From Promethearchaeota archaeon (GTDB taxonomy: Archaea > Asgardarchaeota > Hermodarchaeia > Hermodarchaeales > Hermodarchaeaceae), in contig JBHLPR010000067.1 of NCBI GenBank assembly GCA_048939245.1, positions 1 through 12,555 on the forward strand: a stretch of DNA of 12,555 nucleotides. The letters run 5' to 3'. The position numbers and the translations under genes were made by a program. Shown in pieces: positions 6,414-12,555 of the stretch; the first letter of the stretch is position 1; each line of letters opens with the position of its first letter. The notes below the pieces were generated by a model. It was given only the letters and a program-made list of their open reading frames with translations, was not told the origin of the DNA and did not search any database.

Positions 6414-7058
6414 ATGGAGCATCAAGATGTAATCACTTTCAAGCCCGAACGCATTAAAATTGTGTATGATAAAAAAATAAACGAAATTTTATTTGATCCC
6501 AACCATGCCCCCATTATCCATTCTCTCCGTAAAGGACCAATGACGGTTCGTGAAATCGAAGAAGCCTATGCCGCAGAGGCTAATAAGAATCCAGAAATCG
6601 AGGCAAAATCTGATAAGACCATTTATCGTTACCTCAAAGTCTTAGAAAATGCAGAGCTTGTCGTGCCAGCAGGTCAACGAGTTGTTATCGGAAAAACGGC
6701 AACTGAAACTCTTTTTTCTCGAACCGCTGACGTATTTATTACTGGACAAAGTGAGCAGGAATATTGGAGTTGTGAGGCTGGCAAAAATCTCTGCGCGAAT
6801 ATAGCTACGATGCTTAGCAAAATACTCGGTGACAAAAAAGCTGACAAAAATTGTATCATGAAATTCATGAACGAATTCGATGCAATTGGCAATAAATTCA
6901 TCATAGGCCTTGTAGAAGAAGCAGATGATGAGATGATTGATTTAATTACGGGAATCGATTGGGCTTACAAAGATAAAATTCTCAACTTCGTCAGTATTTT
7001 TGCCATCGCTTTAAAAAATCCTGAAATCTTTGAAAAGCTCCAAGCCTGCTTCAAATAG
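6414..7058 (+). CDS. Winged helix-turn-helix (ArsR-like) transcriptional regulator, 214 aa
   Basis: DPNHAPIIHSLRKGPMTVREI..KSDKTIYRYLKVLENAELV HTH and wing. The listed GTG 6405 is part of the GGTGA SD (6404-6408), so ATG 6414 is preferred. Confidence 0.8.
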   Translation: MEHQDVITFKPERIKIVYDKKINEILFDPNHAPIIHSLRKGPMTVREIEEAYAAEANKNPEIEAKSDKTIYRYLKVLENAELVVPAGQRVVIGKTATETLFSRTADVFITGQSEQEYWSCEAGKNLCANIATMLSKILGDKKADKNCIMKFMNEFDAIGNKFIIGLVEEADDEMIDLITGIDWAYKDKILNFVSIFAIALKNPEIFEKLQACFK

Positions 7059-7082: not shown

Positions 7083-8339
7083 TTAGTCATTCTCTGAGTC
7101 CGCAGGCGCGCGTCTTTCACGAATTTGTAAGAATGTCTCAATAATTATGGGAATTGCTACAAGGACGCCTGCAAGGATATTTCCAATGATGAGTATTTCT
7201 TCGAAGGTTAATGGAAAAACTGATCCAAGCGGCCGTTGATGGTCAATCGCGGGGATGATGTAATCTTCCATAATAGTAGTGTAGGATGCATCCTCATATT
7301 CTGCTGTAAAGACCACAACAAGATTATGTTCCGGAACCACATTGATTTGTTGACCGTTATATCCGATTGCCAAATAGGTGTCTATTGGCAAATTGAGCCA
7401 CCATTGATATCCGTACCCAACGGTATCACTATCGTTGTAGGGGGCGACATGGTTTGCTGTTGATTCATTAACCCAAGACGCAGGAATTAATTCTTCGTTT
7501 TCCCAATTGCCATTATTCAGATATAAAAAACCAAACTTTGCCATATCTCGTGGGCTCAGATGTAGATTCGAGCCTCCAAAGACCACACCCTGCGGGTCTG
7601 TCTCCCATTCGTACTCCATGATTCCAAGAGGTGAGAAGAGATGACTATCGGCATATGCAAGCGTAGTATTGCCAACAGTTTGGTTAACAATCATGGACAA
7701 AAGATGAGATCCTCCGGAATTGTAATCCCACACTTCTCCAGGAGTATCTCGCATAGGCTGATCTAGGACATATTGACCCCAATCAGCGCTCTCAGTCATA
7801 TGGGTGAAACTGCTAGCCGGTCCATACGGCCATTCATACCAGGCAAGTCCCGAGGTCATTGTGAGAAGGTGTTGTATGGTGATTGCTTCCTTTTCGATGG
7901 TGAGGTTGGCTATAGTTCGGGAGGGGAAGAAACTGACCATGGTTTCATTGATGCCTGAAATATGCCCCTGAGCAATGGCTATGCCAATCAATGCCGAGGT
8001 AACACTTTTCGTACAAGAAAAAATATTGGATTGCTGATTGGGACCATATGCCGGGTCATAATAGGATTCCCATACAATGTAGCCGTTTCGAATAATGAGA
8101 ATTGAACGGATCAGACTTCCCCATGATAATTGCTGAATATAAGCCTGCATTGCTTGAAGTTGTGATGAACTCATACCCTGTGCTTCCGGGCTTGTAGAAC
8201 GCCAGCCATCCGTGGGCCAGTATTCGGGGAAGGCAGTTGTCTTCGTGAATGTGTGCTTGTCCCTAAAGAGCGGAGGTATCACGGCTAATAGCATTAACGC
8301 GAAAGCTATTGCGAAAGAAAGCTTTGTTCTGGAATGCAT
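7083..8339 (-). CDS. Serine hydrolase, beta-lactamase class C/peptidase S12-like, secreted with C-terminal membrane anchor
   Basis: SxxK motif FSCTKS, LLTMTSG, YxN-like YNS, LSPRDMAKFG, GYGYQWW and AIGYNGQ. Hydrophobic N-terminal signal; C-terminal TM (ILIIGNILAGVLVAIPIII) followed by basic residues. Confidence 0.9.
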   Translation of the reverse strand: MHSRTKLSFAIAFALMLLAVIPPLFRDKHTFTKTTAFPEYWPTDGWRSTSPEAQGMSSSQLQAMQAYIQQLSWGSLIRSILIIRNGYIVWESYYDPAYGPNQQSNIFSCTKSVTSALIGIAIAQGHISGINETMVSFFPSRTIANLTIEKEAITIQHLLTMTSGLAWYEWPYGPASSFTHMTESADWGQYVLDQPMRDTPGEVWDYNSGGSHLLSMIVNQTVGNTTLAYADSHLFSPLGIMEYEWETDPQGVVFGGSNLHLSPRDMAKFGFLYLNNGNWENEELIPASWVNESTANHVAPYNDSDTVGYGYQWWLNLPIDTYLAIGYNGQQINVVPEHNLVVVFTAEYEDASYTTIMEDYIIPAIDHQRPLGSVFPLTFEEILIIGNILAGVLVAIPIIIETFLQIRERRAPADSEND

Positions 8340-8503
8340 TAGGGGCTGGCTCCTATCTGGGCTTTTGTGTCTTCATCAAAAGTTGTTTCTTATATGCTAA
8401 TTGTATATGGCAAGAATCCTCGTGTGATATGGTGCAATAATTGTTAATGAGATGCTATTTGGGGTGTTATTTTCTCGTTGTATGGCTGTATTTATCCCTC
8501 ATA

Positions 8504-8519
8504 CCGATACATTTATATC
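8504..8519 (+). promoter_or_regulatory. Archaeal BRE-TATA promoter candidate for small ORFs A-C
   Basis: CCGATACA-TTTATAT (TATA 8512-8518). The predicted start near 8541 coincides with hairpin TCCCG (8542-8546)/CGGGA (8556-8560). Confidence 0.55.
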
Positions 8520-8579
8520 ATAGTGTTAGATACTAATCTCATCCCGTAAGAATGTCGGGACATATGGTGGTAAGAAATA

Positions 8580-8717
8580 ATGTCGAAGAGAAAAATCAAC
8601 TTCGCTCGCATCGGAGTCGGTGAGCGATCAGCTCTCGGATGTCGCAATCCGCATCCAACCCCGAATTTCCAGCGAGCTTTCAAAATCATGGCCTCTCGTC
8701 GAGGCTCAAAGTGGTAA
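8580..8717 (+). CDS. Small basic peptide A, 45 aa: MSKRKINFARIGVGERSALGCRNPHPTPNFQRAFKIMASRRGSKW
   Basis: GGTGGT SD 8 nt before ATG. Apparent paralog of peptide D, sharing [IL]Nxx[RK][IV]xVxE and CRNP. Confidence 0.65.
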   Translation: MSKRKINFARIGVGERSALGCRNPHPTPNFQRAFKIMASRRGSKW

Positions 8718-8751
8718 AAGTCGAATACACGAATAAAAAGTGGTGATAATA

Positions 8752-8835
8752 ATGGTAACTAAATATCGAAATCTCCGTCACAACGGCTCCAATAAGAATT
8801 ACTTTGTTTACTCCTTAGTCTTCGTTCGAAGGTAA
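8752..8835 (+). CDS. Small basic peptide B, 27 aa: MVTKYRNLRHNGSNKNYFVYSLVFVRR
   Basis: GGTGA SD (8742-8746) 5 nt before ATG. N-terminus matches peptide C; C-terminal LVFVRR-stop matches peptide D LLFQRR-stop. Confidence 0.55.
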   Translation: MVTKYRNLRHNGSNKNYFVYSLVFVRR

Positions 8836-8883
8836 GATGAGTTATGCAATACAGTGGTTGTGGTGAGGGGATCAACATTCATG

Positions 8884-9093
8884 ATGGTGTCACGAATTCG
8901 GGTCTTCCGGAATAATGGCGCTAAACGCATCCGTTGTCTACCCAGTAGGCCCACAACTCTGGATAGCGCTCTTCTAAAGCACCATCCCCTCATTCCTCTT
9001 GGCCAGTATTTTCCGGAAGGCCCATTACTCCCTTATTTTCCTGTGTTTTTCTATCAATCCAATAACGGAATTTTAGTGAGCAGTCCATCATGA
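8884..9093 (+). CDS. Small peptide C, 69 aa, starting MVSRIRVFRNNGAKRIRCLPSRP
   Basis: GGTGAGGGG (8862-8870) upstream of ATGATG at 8881/8884. The first 15 aa align with peptide B. The 3' half crosses a pyrimidine-rich tract and is less certain. Confidence 0.45.
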   Translation: MVSRIRVFRNNGAKRIRCLPSRPTTLDSALLKHHPLIPLGQYFPEGPLLPYFPVFFYQSNNGILVSSPS

Positions 9094-9298
9094 TGTTTTT
9101 TGGTGGTTTTCTTTCAGGGATCGCTGATTTATTTTCATCATGGATGCTAAGTTCTGCTTGATGTTGTCTTCGGCAACCCCCCCACACTTATTTGCCACTG
9201 CGCTTTTGGTCTCTCCCTCCAAAACTCGCGACATCATTACGGTCTTAGCGTCCTCTTTTTACTTCGTGTATGGTCTTCTTTTTGGTGGTGAGAAATGA

Positions 9299-9312
9299 AT
9301 AAGGTTTTTAAA
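9299..9312 (+). promoter_or_regulatory. BRE-TATA promoter candidate for peptide D
   Basis: ATAAGG-TTTTTAAA, the same style as AAAGG-TTTTTAT at 9661. Palindrome TTAACA-G-TGTTAA (9324-9336) lies between the TATA and the predicted start site. Confidence 0.6.
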
Positions 9313-9335
9313 CCAGAAGGCACTTAACAGTGTTA

Positions 9336-9404
9336 ACTTGTTGGTGCTTCCATAAGGCGACAAAAAAGGTAGCCAAATCGCTCTAAACTCTGAAGCAACC
9401 AAGT
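9336..9404 (+). other. Structured 5' leader (long hairpin) of the peptide D transcript
   Basis: TTGGTGCTTC (9341-9350) pairs with GAAGCAACCAA (9392-9402) with one bulge. Alternative register ACTTG (9336-9340)/CAAGT (9400-9404). Inner helix GGCGA (9356-9360)/TCGCT (9378-9382). Confidence 0.45.
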
Positions 9405-9421
9405 GCTAAGGGGTGGTAAAT

Positions 9422-9568
9422 ATGGTCCGATACCAACTCAACAAATGTAAAGTTCCCGTCTCTGAAGATGATCGTACAAAAACATCCCCTGGACTTGCAG
9501 AATGCCGAAACCCAAAGGCACTCAACAAGAGCCCATGGGAAGAAGCGCTCCTCTTTCAACGACGGTAA
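9422..9568 (+). CDS. Small peptide D, 48 aa: MVRYQLNKCKVPVSEDDRTKTSPGLAECRNPKALNKSPWEEALLFQRR
   Basis: GGGGTGGT SD (9410-9417), flanked by its own promoter and terminator. CRNP motif shared with peptide A. Confidence 0.65.
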   Translation: MVRYQLNKCKVPVSEDDRTKTSPGLAECRNPKALNKSPWEEALLFQRR

Positions 9569-9590
9569 AAAAAACAGGTTCATTCTATAT

Positions 9591-9646
9591 GGGGATCGAT
9601 AACCAATTGCTGGTCCCCCCAATTCTTTCTTTTCATACTCCTTTTT
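9591..9646 (+). terminator. Hairpin plus U-rich terminator after peptide D
   Basis: GGGGATC (9591-9597)/GGTCCCC (9612-9618), followed by TTCTTTCTTTT and CTTTTT. Confidence 0.6.
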
Positions 9647-9659
9647 ACGTGAGTCAATA

Positions 9660-9695
9660 GAAAGGTTTTTATCACAACTTGAGATAATTTTCTCA
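9660..9695 (+). promoter_or_regulatory. BRE-TATA promoter of the DUF362 gene with downstream palindrome TGAGA-N6-TCTCA
   Basis: GAAAGG-TTTTTAT (TATA 9666-9672). TGAGA 9680-9684 / TCTCA 9691-9695 sits in a repressor position. Confidence 0.55.
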
Positions 9696-9741
9696 CAGCA
9701 TTAGAATACTTATCGTTGTCATCTAACAACAGGTGAAGTCA

Positions 9742-10941
9742 TTGACCTCAAAAGTCTATTACGGCTCCATTCAGCAAGGGCGTGACCATCCCTTCGCCGC
9801 CCTCGGAACGAAGTTTAACAAACTTCTCGAACACCTCGATTTCTCTACCATAAAAAAACACGACAAAGTCGCCATCAAAATGCATCTCGGCTTTGCTGAT
9901 GGCTACCAAACCGTCCCGGTCTTTTTTGTCCGACGCGTCGTCAAAGCTGTCAAGGAAGCTGGTGGCTGGCCTTTCATCACCGACAACCCCACAGCCGTTT
10001 ACAATGCTGTAGATAGAGGTTATACTCAAGAAACCTGTGGTTGTCCGCTAATTCCCGTTGCCGGCGTAAAAGACGGATATACGAAGACCATGAAAATTAA
10101 TTTTAAAAAAGTCAAAGAATTGGAAATGGGCGGCGTAATCTATGACGCGGATGCCCTCATCGACCTCACCCACGCCAAAGGTCATGCCAATTGTGGCTAT
10201 GGCGGTGCCATCAAAAACATCGCCCTCGGTGGTTATTCCGGACCCACACGATGGAATCGCATTCATGGGGTCGAAAATGTCGGTCGTTGGTATGATCCCA
10301 AAAAATGCTCACCCGAACATGCTCAAATACTTGTCGAAGCCTGCCCCTATAATGCGCTCTCCTATGACAAAGAAAAAGATAAACTCAACATAATGCGATT
10401 TCGCTGCCACTATGACAACTGCACCGAATGCATCAAAGCTGACAAAGATGTAGGTTGTCTCAATCTCCAACCCAAACAGTTTGAAGCCTTTCAAGAAATG
10501 ATGGCCATTGCTGCCAAACAAGTTCTTGAAACCTTCGATAAAAACAAACGTTTCTACATTAACGTCGCCTTAGACATCACACCTCATTGTGATTGCATGG
10601 GTATGATTCAACCGGCTATAGTACCGAATATTGGAATCTTGGCTAGTCGAGATATTGTTGCTGTTGAACAAGCCACTCTCGATTTAATAGCCAAAAAAGG
10701 ATTACTGGAGAGTGAAATTCCTCCGTATTTCAAACATGCGAATCTTGATCCGGAAGCGGATCTTCATCCGTTTCAGCGGTTATGGGGTCCGTATAAGGAT
10801 CCATATGGAGTAACGAACCATGCTGAACAAATGGGTATGGGCTCGCGTAAATATAAACTGGTTGAAGTGCTTGCTGCGAAGAAGACTTTGAAAATGGATC
10901 CACCGAAACAAGAATTCGAAAGAATGCCATCATTTTACTAA
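9742..10941 (+). CDS. DUF362-domain iron-sulfur protein, 399 aa
   Basis: KVAIKMHLG, GGWPFITD, LTHAKGH..GYGGAIKNIALG, DITPHCDC and NIGILASRDIVAVEQA, with a Cys-rich ferredoxin-like insert. The listed GTG 9733 is part of the GGTGA SD, so TTG 9742 (MTSKVYY) is preferred. Confidence 0.88.
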   Translation: MTSKVYYGSIQQGRDHPFAALGTKFNKLLEHLDFSTIKKHDKVAIKMHLGFADGYQTVPVFFVRRVVKAVKEAGGWPFITDNPTAVYNAVDRGYTQETCGCPLIPVAGVKDGYTKTMKINFKKVKELEMGGVIYDADALIDLTHAKGHANCGYGGAIKNIALGGYSGPTRWNRIHGVENVGRWYDPKKCSPEHAQILVEACPYNALSYDKEKDKLNIMRFRCHYDNCTECIKADKDVGCLNLQPKQFEAFQEMMAIAAKQVLETFDKNKRFYINVALDITPHCDCMGMIQPAIVPNIGILASRDIVAVEQATLDLIAKKGLLESEIPPYFKHANLDPEADLHPFQRLWGPYKDPYGVTNHAEQMGMGSRKYKLVEVLAAKKTLKMDPPKQEFERMPSFY

Positions 10942-11213: not shown

Positions 11214-12555
11214 ATGACCAAGAAATCCAAGAAGTCGCCGAAGAAAGAGAATGCAGACCAGGAGGAAATTGTCACTTTTCATTTTGATAAGGTCGACGAG
11301 TTTTCTACTTGGTTTACTGAAATCAACAAACGAGCTGAACTTTCCGACCAACGGTATGGTGTGAAAGGACTCGTTGTATTCCGTGCGTGGACAACGGTCA
11401 CATTGAAAATCATGTACCGGTTATTGGAAGAAGATTTAGAACGTCACGGGCATCTTCCAGTCATTTTCCCTGCCTTAGTCCCTGAAACAAATCTCCTCAA
11501 AGAAGCAGAGCATGTGGAAGGATTTGCTCCGGAAGTCTTTTGGTGTACACGTTCAGGGCAAGATAACGTCTTTGAAGAACCCCTTGCATTACGTCCAACT
11601 AGCGAATCGGCTATGTATCCCATGTACGCTCTTTGGATTCGAAGCTGGCGTGACCTTCCCTTCAAACGCTATCAAAGTGTAGCTATTTGGCGGTATGATA
11701 CCAAAATGACCCGCCCGTTCCTTCGTGCACGAGAATTCTACTGGATCGAAGCCCATGATGTGTTTGCTACCGCCAAAGAGGCTGAAGCCCAGGTACTCGA
11801 GGATTTAAAAATTACGAAGAATTTCGTTGAAGGACACCTAGCGATGCCTATAATTGTGCTCAAACGTCCGCAATGGGACAAATTCCCGGGAGCAGACTAT
11901 ACAGTTGCTGGAGAATCAATATTGCCGGATGGGCGCTTTATTCAAAATTCAACGAGTCACATGCTTGGCGATAACTTTGCTAAAGCCTATGGAGTGAAGT
12001 ATGTAGACGAAAATGAAGAGGAACAATTCGCTCAACAGACCTGTTTCGGTCCTGGAATCAGCAGGATGTATGGTGCTCTTATAATTATGCACGGTGACGA
12101 CGACGGCCTTATCCTCCCGTTTGAATTGGCTCCGGTACAGGTTGCTATCGTTCCGATTCCCAAGAAGGGGGCCAAGATAACTGTAGAGACACGGTGCCGT
12201 GAAATAGAGGAGATCCTTCGTAATGCTGGATTCAGAGTTTTCTTTGACAATACAGACAAGCGACCGGGTGATAAGTACTATCATTGGGAAATGCGCGGTG
12301 TTCCGTTACGGCTTGAAATAGGCAATCGGGAAGTGCAGAAAAAGACGGTGACCATCTTTCGGCGCGATTTACGAACCCGCGAGACCATTCAAGGAAAAGA
12401 GTTGGTCAAAGCTGTTAAGAAAAATGGAAGAGCTGTGACCAAGGAGCTGTGGCGCCGAGCAAAAGACCAATTTGATGGCGCCTTCCAAAACGCTGATACC
12501 TTCGAAGAAATCTGTGCAATTATTAACGACCACAAAGCTGCTCGTATTAATTTCT
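11214..12555 (+). CDS. proS: Proline--tRNA ligase, archaeal/eukaryote type; 3' truncated and absent from the ORF track
   Basis: GGTGA SD at 11205-11209, then ATG 11214: MTKKSKKSPKKE..FSTWFTEI..KEAEHVEGFAPEVFW..LALRPTSE..RSWRDLP..RYDTKMTRPFLRAREFYWIEAH..HGDDDGLILP..WEMRGVPLRLEIG. Open to the end of the window. Confidence 0.97.
   Translation, partial: MTKKSKKSPKKENADQEEIVTFHFDKVDEFSTWFTEINKRAELSDQRYGVKGLVVFRAWTTVTLKIMYRLLEEDLERHGHLPVIFPALVPETNLLKEAEHVEGFAPEVFWCTRSGQDNVFEEPLALRPTSESAMYPMYALWIRSWRDLPFKRYQSVAIWRYDTKMTRPFLRAREFYWIEAHDVFATAKEAEAQVLEDLKITKNFVEGHLAMPIIVLKRPQWDKFPGADYTVAGESILPDGRFIQNSTSHMLGDNFAKAYGVKYVDENEEEQFAQQTCFGPGISRMYGALIIMHGDDDGLILPFELAPVQVAIVPIPKKGAKITVETRCREIEEILRNAGFRVFFDNTDKRPGDKYYHWEMRGVPLRLEIGNREVQKKTVTIFRRDLRTRETIQGKELVKAVKKNGRAVTKELWRRAKDQFDGAFQNADTFEEICAIINDHKAARINF

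Follow-up and report, generated by a model that had tools for sequence, protein, structure and literature searches.

What is encoded in the apparently intergenic region between a serine hydrolase gene and a DUF362 gene of a Hermodarchaeia genome? The region (8340–9740) lies in a stretch of 12,555 nucleotides, here called the window, with which contig C79 of a 2.5-Mb assembly (G000) begins. At the DNA level the region is matched in 14/14 genomes of the same genus, and no match was obtained beyond that genus. The original prediction placed in it a family of four unrecognized small basic peptides, A to D, each led by a Shine-Dalgarno (SD) sequence. The family proved to be real, although it has three members here, and ORF C is excluded from it.

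The region is bordered by a gene for an ArsR-type winged-helix (wHTH) regulator (6414–7058, forward strand; Pfam HTH_5), the gene for a beta-lactamase-fold serine hydrolase (7083–8339, reverse strand), which is divergent from A, and the gene for a DUF362/4Fe-4S protein (9742–10941, forward strand), whose closest relatives are in records labelled Hermodarchaeota or with sister MAG labels. Farther out, at 814–2957, a protein with weak matches to longin-like, roadblock and winged-helix domains precedes a ParA/MinD-like ATPase, and the long ORF that runs off the end of the window (11215–12555) resembles, judged by eye, a prolyl-tRNA synthetase.

Results

The peptide genes

Comparison of orthologous loci indicates that A, B and D are protein-coding genes under purifying selection, and that they belong to a basic family, typically of 40–50 residues, that is restricted to the Hermodarchaeia. 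All three lie on the forward strand: ORF A (8580–8717) encodes 45 aa with a pI of 12 and a predicted helix-loop-helix, and is present in four copies in G000; ORF B (8752–8835) encodes 27 aa and retains, of the family sequence, just its C-terminal half (F-x-x-x-L-h-h-x-R-R); and ORF D (9422–9568) encodes a divergent, single-copy member of 48 aa, found in 12/15 genus genomes. Their SDs (A, 8566–8570; B, 8742–8746; D, 9412–9416) stand 5–9 nt from the start, and their frames and near-constant lengths are kept in the orthologous loci of relatives, with no internal stops and with JC dN/dS ratios of 0.13 (A), 0.38 (B) and 0.20 (D). Shifted frames of the same ORFs, used as a control, give ratios >1 and many stops. 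Substitutions in A and D fall mostly at third codon positions, and the protein-level selection originally suspected from their CRNP motifs, whose codons indeed differ only at third positions, is borne out by these ratios. Of the four SD-led ORFs first proposed, A, B and D hold as to coordinates, SDs and frames, but the GGTGA assigned to C lies 14–17 nt from its ATG; similarly, the frames expected to be conserved in relatives are intact in A, B and D, but not in the 3′ half of C.

The family motif of ORF A is [SP]xxER..G(C/A)[RKH]NP...hhSR[RH], in which E-R and N-P are invariant and the conserved Cys is often Ala, and the family C-terminus is hydrophobic-hydrophobic-S/T-R-R/H, sometimes with a short aromatic extension. 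In a profile comparison of A with D (hhalign, 60% probability, pairwise E 8.6e-5), VGER is matched to VSEeR and the two CRNP motifs to each other, with a 5-residue gap between; the N-terminal block is not part of the alignment, so that the ungapped alignment once drawn over residues 1–15 was not recovered. CRNP occurs in 4/3787 SD-led ORFs of 25–70 aa in the genome, namely A, D and two A paralogues. The N-terminal motif formerly assigned to B and C is a similarity seen in G000 only, not being kept in the orthologues of either ORF. B-like ORFs also occur in three second-genus loci, where they precede A-like ORFs (the order being swapped) within the same promoter-operator layout. The final codons and stop of B (8812–8840) can form a CGAA-loop hairpin that is kept in second-genus B-like genes, so the RR-stop may be under partial RNA-level constraint. 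The peptides have pI values of 9.5–12 and GRAVY scores of −0.79, −0.66 and −0.97, with 10–11 Lys/Arg residues in A and D.

Three paralogues of A are found in its own genome (one on contig C108 and two on C118), and 17/18 other family genomes carry 1–7 copies. The family was not convincingly found in 282 further Asgard genomes, among which the single weak match of the A profile, in G076 (E 0.006), was discarded as the motif is missing. Protein-database searches returned about 60 short proteins, from the same lineage where this is named, together with a few long repetitive sequences. Pfam, NCBIfam and PHROGs contain no family for the peptides and our paper searches yielded none; the family is previously undescribed. 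No significant match was obtained in the PDB, no relatives were found on viral contigs, and the first matches in the ESM Atlas were <0.9. AlphaFold models A as two helices with low confidence (pLDDT 61), and fold searches with this model gave nothing informative (Foldseek E 9.8; best VIA Z 3.7).

Promoters and a conserved operator

The two TATA boxes originally proposed, at 8512 and 9305, and the hairpin with U-tract after D (9591–9634), which ends the D transcript, are as predicted. The BRE and TATA of the A-B-tail transcript (8504–8518, forward strand) are conserved in 14/14 genus loci, and just after this TATA lies an imperfect operator of TGAGA-N6-TCTCA type (8526–8541). A perfect copy of the same motif (9680–9695) follows the TATA of the DUF362 gene, with arms that are exact and a spacer that is variable across 12 genus genomes, and operator half-sites, conserved there too, flank the promoter of the adjacent wHTH gene and occur at the B/A loci of genus 2. 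Only two exact TGAGA-N6-TCTCA sites exist in the genome, both of them intergenic; within the window alone the motif is no more frequent than expected by chance, and the evidence for the operator is its position and conservation. These arrangements indicate that one operator is common to the promoters of A, the DUF362 gene and the neighbouring wHTH gene, which makes the DUF362 gene probably co-regulated with the A-B unit and the wHTH protein the probable binder of the operator. The TATA of D is followed by a separate palindrome, TTAAC-N3-GTTAA (9324–9336), and this promoter region (9305–9336, forward strand) is conserved in aligned genus loci.

Further intergenic operator matches lie at C11:66548 and C45:6162, one exact before a 478-aa gene and the other, which has one mismatch, between a TATA and the gene of a 439-aa membrane protein; these genes are candidate regulon members. 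The paralogues on C108 and C118 have another promoter type in common: at C118:12677, C118:13200 and C108:9204 (L062, L061) a TTTGCAC box is followed by CTCCCATCGA and a weak TATA, with an inverted GTGCAAA upstream. Similar sites stand beside genes for double-HTH Lrp-like proteins, of which the genome has 10, and this suggests that these paralogues may be activated by Lrp-like regulators.

ORF C and the structured RNA E1

ORF C (8881–9093, forward strand) is an open frame rather than a conserved protein, given that its 3′ half is read in frame 0 in 7, frame 1 in 4 and frame 2 in 3 of 14 orthologues, that its pN/pS is 0.76 and that its length is variable. An in-frame ATG is present in 13/14 orthologues and the frame is open across E1 in 14/14, so that incidental translation is possible and ORF C may be translated as a by-product. 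The pattern of substitution indicates that the DNA under ORF C is conserved as RNA structure and not as peptide, and ORF C is an example of an apparent reading frame, in a conserved intergenic stretch, that reflects an underlying RNA element.

This element, E1 (8900–9023, forward strand; 124 nt), has a closing stem (8900–8912/9011–9023) followed by a U-rich tract. Among 28 sequences, 98.8% of the cells of the closing stem are paired, with 24 two-sided changes, against 31–60% in slid controls. E1 begins 64 nt after the stop codon of B on the same strand, with no promoter between, and a closing stem of this type follows many paralogous peptide genes, lying 52–68 nt past the last stop in most genus-1 units. 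The inner folds vary by subtype, with a recurring CCGUUG core. A covariance model found the element in 16/18 family genomes and not convincingly elsewhere; three matches outside the family were discarded, as they lay in or overlapped coding regions. Rfam 15 gave no match in the window at the gathering threshold (best E 9.7 at this locus and 0.62 at that on C118), and resemblances seen by eye to T-box, cobalamin, twister, hammerhead, C/D box and SECIS elements had no Rfam support. Covariation and these searches together indicate that E1 is a previously uncatalogued structured RNA family.

The covariance model also located E1 without a peptide gene, directly behind the gene of a beta-lactamase-fold hydrolase on contig C70, a paralogue of the hydrolase divergent from A. 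This tail (G000 C70:5615–5784; L132:3116–3285) is better conserved than E1 of the window, its seed matches the start region of the hydrolase gene itself, and the gene sits behind that of an Lrp-like regulator. In G011 and G013 the body of the C70-type hydrolase is deleted, and what remains is its start region and the tail, separated by about 60 nt.

Other structures in the locus include a 5′-UTR hairpin of A (8542–8560, forward strand), with a consensus stem and some two-sided changes, and the element E2 (9142–9253, forward strand), which has a long covarying closing stem (two-sided changes in 9/19 pairs), a C-rich, anti-SD-like interior and a U-tract. Anti-SD 5-mers in the tails are enriched only about 4-fold over the genome background and 1.6–4-fold over shuffles, and because no 16S rRNA was found in the assembly, the anti-SD is not readable directly from the genome. 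Between E1 and E2 (9050–9140), several relatives have an SD and ATG with no conserved frame, possibly a decayed peptide gene.

An antisense seed in E1 and an invariant site in a subtilase mRNA

When the E1 loop was compared with all 1925 gene starts of the genome, rank 1 was taken by a gene for a 1591-aa secreted subtilase (PF00082; C70:108222). By sequence, the most conserved loop of E1 is the reverse complement of an invariant site over the probable SD of this gene: a seed at 8929–8939 and a second block at 8943–8949 are complementary to the subtilase 5′-UTR and ribosome-binding site (RBS) through 10 Watson-Crick pairs and one G-U, plus 7 pairs, the longer of the two blocks overlapping a GGAUGG that is spaced from the start as an SD would be. 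An exact 10-mer and 7-mer within 15 nt would be expected about 7e-5 times. The subtilase site is identical in all nine genus orthologues over a run of 20 nt and a further 7 nt, while the upstream spacer varies and the proteins are 41–75% identical to the query. Tail subtypes 2, 3 and 6 mostly retain 8–13 nt of exact antisense to it. The loop also reads as nearly the reverse complement of the start of the C70 gene for the membrane-anchored serine hydrolase, which ranks 19 and whose start matches the seed in 7/9 orthologues.

The seed is predicted to be 38–66% unpaired. In C108-type and type-2 tails it lies inside a local hairpin, in the G010 and G012 orthologues a seed substitution can be fitted only through a bulge, and the genus-2 tails are without it. 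The clade of G002, G005 and G006 has lost the seed, and neither the subtilase site nor the gene was found there, a co-loss that counts as one event in incomplete genomes; in G009, G011 and G013 (72–86% complete) the seed is kept, but no subtilase site was detected. Because the target site is invariant, compensatory changes cannot be demonstrated, and part of the complementarity stems from a CUAC/GUAG hairpin that both RNAs have. Duplex energy was not significant, as 10/40 shuffled cores found an equally good best partner; the case for the predicted pairing rests instead on exact contiguous complementarity and conservation at both ends. Folding of the seed back onto the 5′ region of its own unit was likewise not significant (median percentiles 0.16–0.47). 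In genus 2, the subtilase UTR (G015, L191:1425–1500) and the regions upstream of peptide genes (L036/L034) have a same-sense CCUACC-loop-GGUA hairpin in place of the antisense seed, and this common hairpin is a possible protein-binding site.

Discussion

Archaeal dual-function RNAs are known mainly from Methanosarcina, and no description of small RNAs in Hermodarchaeia was found in the literature searched. The locus studied here combines the sequence hallmarks of a dual-function sRNA, namely a selected small ORF, a conserved RNA domain on the same strand and conserved complementarity at the start of another mRNA. Because A and B are selected ORFs on one message with an antisense RNA tail, small proteins and a gene-silencing RNA are probably both made. 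We propose, at about even chances, that the A-B-E1 unit is a dual-function transcript, which would supply peptides A and B as well as a stable 3′ RNA that, through its seed, would pair with the subtilase UTR and prevent initiation. In this proposal, the wHTH repressor would leave its operator and the A-B-E1 transcript would accumulate; the single-stranded E1 seed would first pair on the 3′ side of the subtilase UTR hairpin, where that UTR is unpaired, and pairing would then extend through the hairpin so as to block 30S binding, as a result of which the protease would be turned down. Since paralogous peptide genes with other promoters use the same seed, several inputs would converge on one target. 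The weakest step concerns the peptides, which might assist by binding RNA (their own tail or the duplex) or the ribosome; a helper role through RNA binding, our best guess in view of their basicity, the absence of a transmembrane segment and the conserved ER..G.RNP and C-terminal RR, and suggested by analogy with FbpA/B/C and FsrA (PMC8464778), is conceivable, if somewhat doubtful. The regulatory or RNA-binding micro-proteins of the original prediction are thus a plausible reading.

Several bacterial RNAs share this architecture. Like the A-B-E1 unit, RNAIII/delta-hemolysin of S. aureus, SR1/SR1P of B. subtilis and SgrS/SgrT of E. coli combine a 5′ small ORF with a structured 3′ domain; RBS repression is what we predict here, and the targets of RNAIII include cell-wall and secreted enzymes (PMC12612679, PMC8501984). 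The system described here differs from these in being archaeal, in having two tandem peptides with no detected sequence relationship to theirs, in consisting of multi-copy paralogous units with different promoters and one common seed, and in that the same RNA domain also stands at the 3′ end of an ordinary enzyme gene. Closer in phylogeny, sRNA154 and sRNA41 of Methanosarcina mazei are trans-acting RNAs that mask ribosome-binding sites, and sRNA154, which has a translated 20-aa ORF, has been proposed to be dual-function (PMC5867862, PMC11456600). RBS masking in an archaeon is common to both RNAs and the proposed unit, and a small ORF to sRNA154 and the unit; sRNA154, however, is a single-copy gene of the nitrogen regulon with a leaderless ORF, unlike the E1 units, and E1 is without an Rfam match. 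In B. subtilis, FsrA is a C-rich, RBS-binding sRNA, and the basic, repressor-controlled FbpA, FbpB and FbpC (54, 48 and 29 aa) are its proposed helpers (PMC8464778). The peptides here are of similar length (45, 48 and 27 aa), and an Fe-S protein gene has the same operator; unlike FsrA, however, which has a gene of its own, the RNA here is carried on the message for the peptides. No homology was detected between the two systems, and any link to iron would be by analogy.

Among the alternatives, the one that deserves most weight, although we consider it unlikely, is that the peptides are free-standing nucleic-acid- or ribosome-binding microproteins, with tails that merely stabilize and terminate their mRNAs and a subtilase match that reflects a common protein-binding hairpin or chance. 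The strong basicity of the peptides, the units that end in simple hairpins without a seed and the outcome of the energy control fit this explanation, as do the best PDB sequence matches, which are three HU DNA-binding arms with ER...RNP (E 0.38–0.65). The ER-A-x-x-x-x-RNP stretch of the HU/IHF arm (PF00216) aligns with the peptides ungapped but not significantly (E 0.38 or worse), 0/31 family members match PF00216 at E up to 5, and the peptides, at 40–57 aa, lack a dimerization body and are predicted to form two helices rather than a beta-arm. This explanation would not account for the finding that the unpaired flanks of tail and target are antisense to each other and not identical, for the persistence of the same 8–13 nt in four tail subtypes that fold differently inside, or for an E1-type element behind a hydrolase gene with no peptide. 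A type I toxin-antitoxin-like arrangement, in which harmful peptides would be locked from translation by fold-back of the tail (the C-rich loop of E2 on the SD of A) until 3′ processing, appears improbable. Multi-copy, stand-alone small-peptide genes that have a hairpin near the 5′ end and a structured 3′ end are a feature in common with hok/Sok and aapA/IsoA, whose logic (PMC6733600) could apply here, and the E2 loop can pair over 8–11 nt with the SD of A, cognate pairs being favoured at p 0.003–0.03 in windows chosen post hoc. With broad windows, however, p is 0.14, and among close genomes 0.24, and whole-transcript folds reproduce the pairing inconsistently. Type I toxins typically have a transmembrane helix (PMC8464778), but the peptides here have none and are not hydrophobic (GRAVY −0.66 to −0.97); no antisense antitoxin and no conserved antisense promoter or terminator were seen, U-tracts are on the sense side only, and the seed points to another gene.

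The C-terminal 10–12 residues are the sole part common to A, B and D, the distance from stop to stem is near constant and C108-type tails contain overlapping alternative hairpins, all of which would suit leader or arrest peptides, where a ribosome stalled at the hydrophobic-RR-stop end controls downstream RNA folding and read-through. We give this explanation still less credence: the gene that follows is in many units convergent or served by a TATA of its own, which leaves those units no target for read-through, the Arg codons of the peptides match genome usage, and A and its C108 paralogue continue beyond RR. Least probable of all, and by our estimate very unlikely, are RiPP precursors or exported signalling peptides processed by neighbouring hydrolases, even though the peptides are multi-copy with a conserved core and peptidases and regulators often adjoin their loci. 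The RiPP idea, raised in the original prediction, finds no modifying enzyme near the peptide loci: no YcaO was found in the genome, and none of its 25 radical-SAM genes lies on the peptide contigs C79, C108 and C118. The peptides have no signal or leader segment, the Cys is not invariant, and neighbours differ among loci.

Returning to the dual-function transcript, we note that the locus yields a protein family not described before, an RNA family absent from the catalogues and a concrete target that is conserved, namely a large secreted subtilase of a sediment Asgard archaeon known here from metagenome assemblies alone. What the present comparison adds is evidence that C is RNA, that B is conserved in two genera, that E1 also appears to serve a non-peptide gene and that the putative target site is invariant across the protease-carrying genus genomes. 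On a broader and more speculative view, to which we assign a low probability, the Hermodarchaeia might possess a network in which separately regulated transcripts each deliver a basic microprotein and a 3′ RNA with the common seed, the peptide being the dedicated partner in a self-encoded guide RNP that would silence secreted proteases and hydrolases at their RBS; if true, this would be a post-transcriptional network without known parallel in archaea. Mobile elements border some of these units: IS605-type TnpB genes adjoin four family loci (L061:4650–5903, L041, L046 and L054), and on C108 of G000 an IS605-type insertion appears to have severed the terminator hairpin of the A paralogue.
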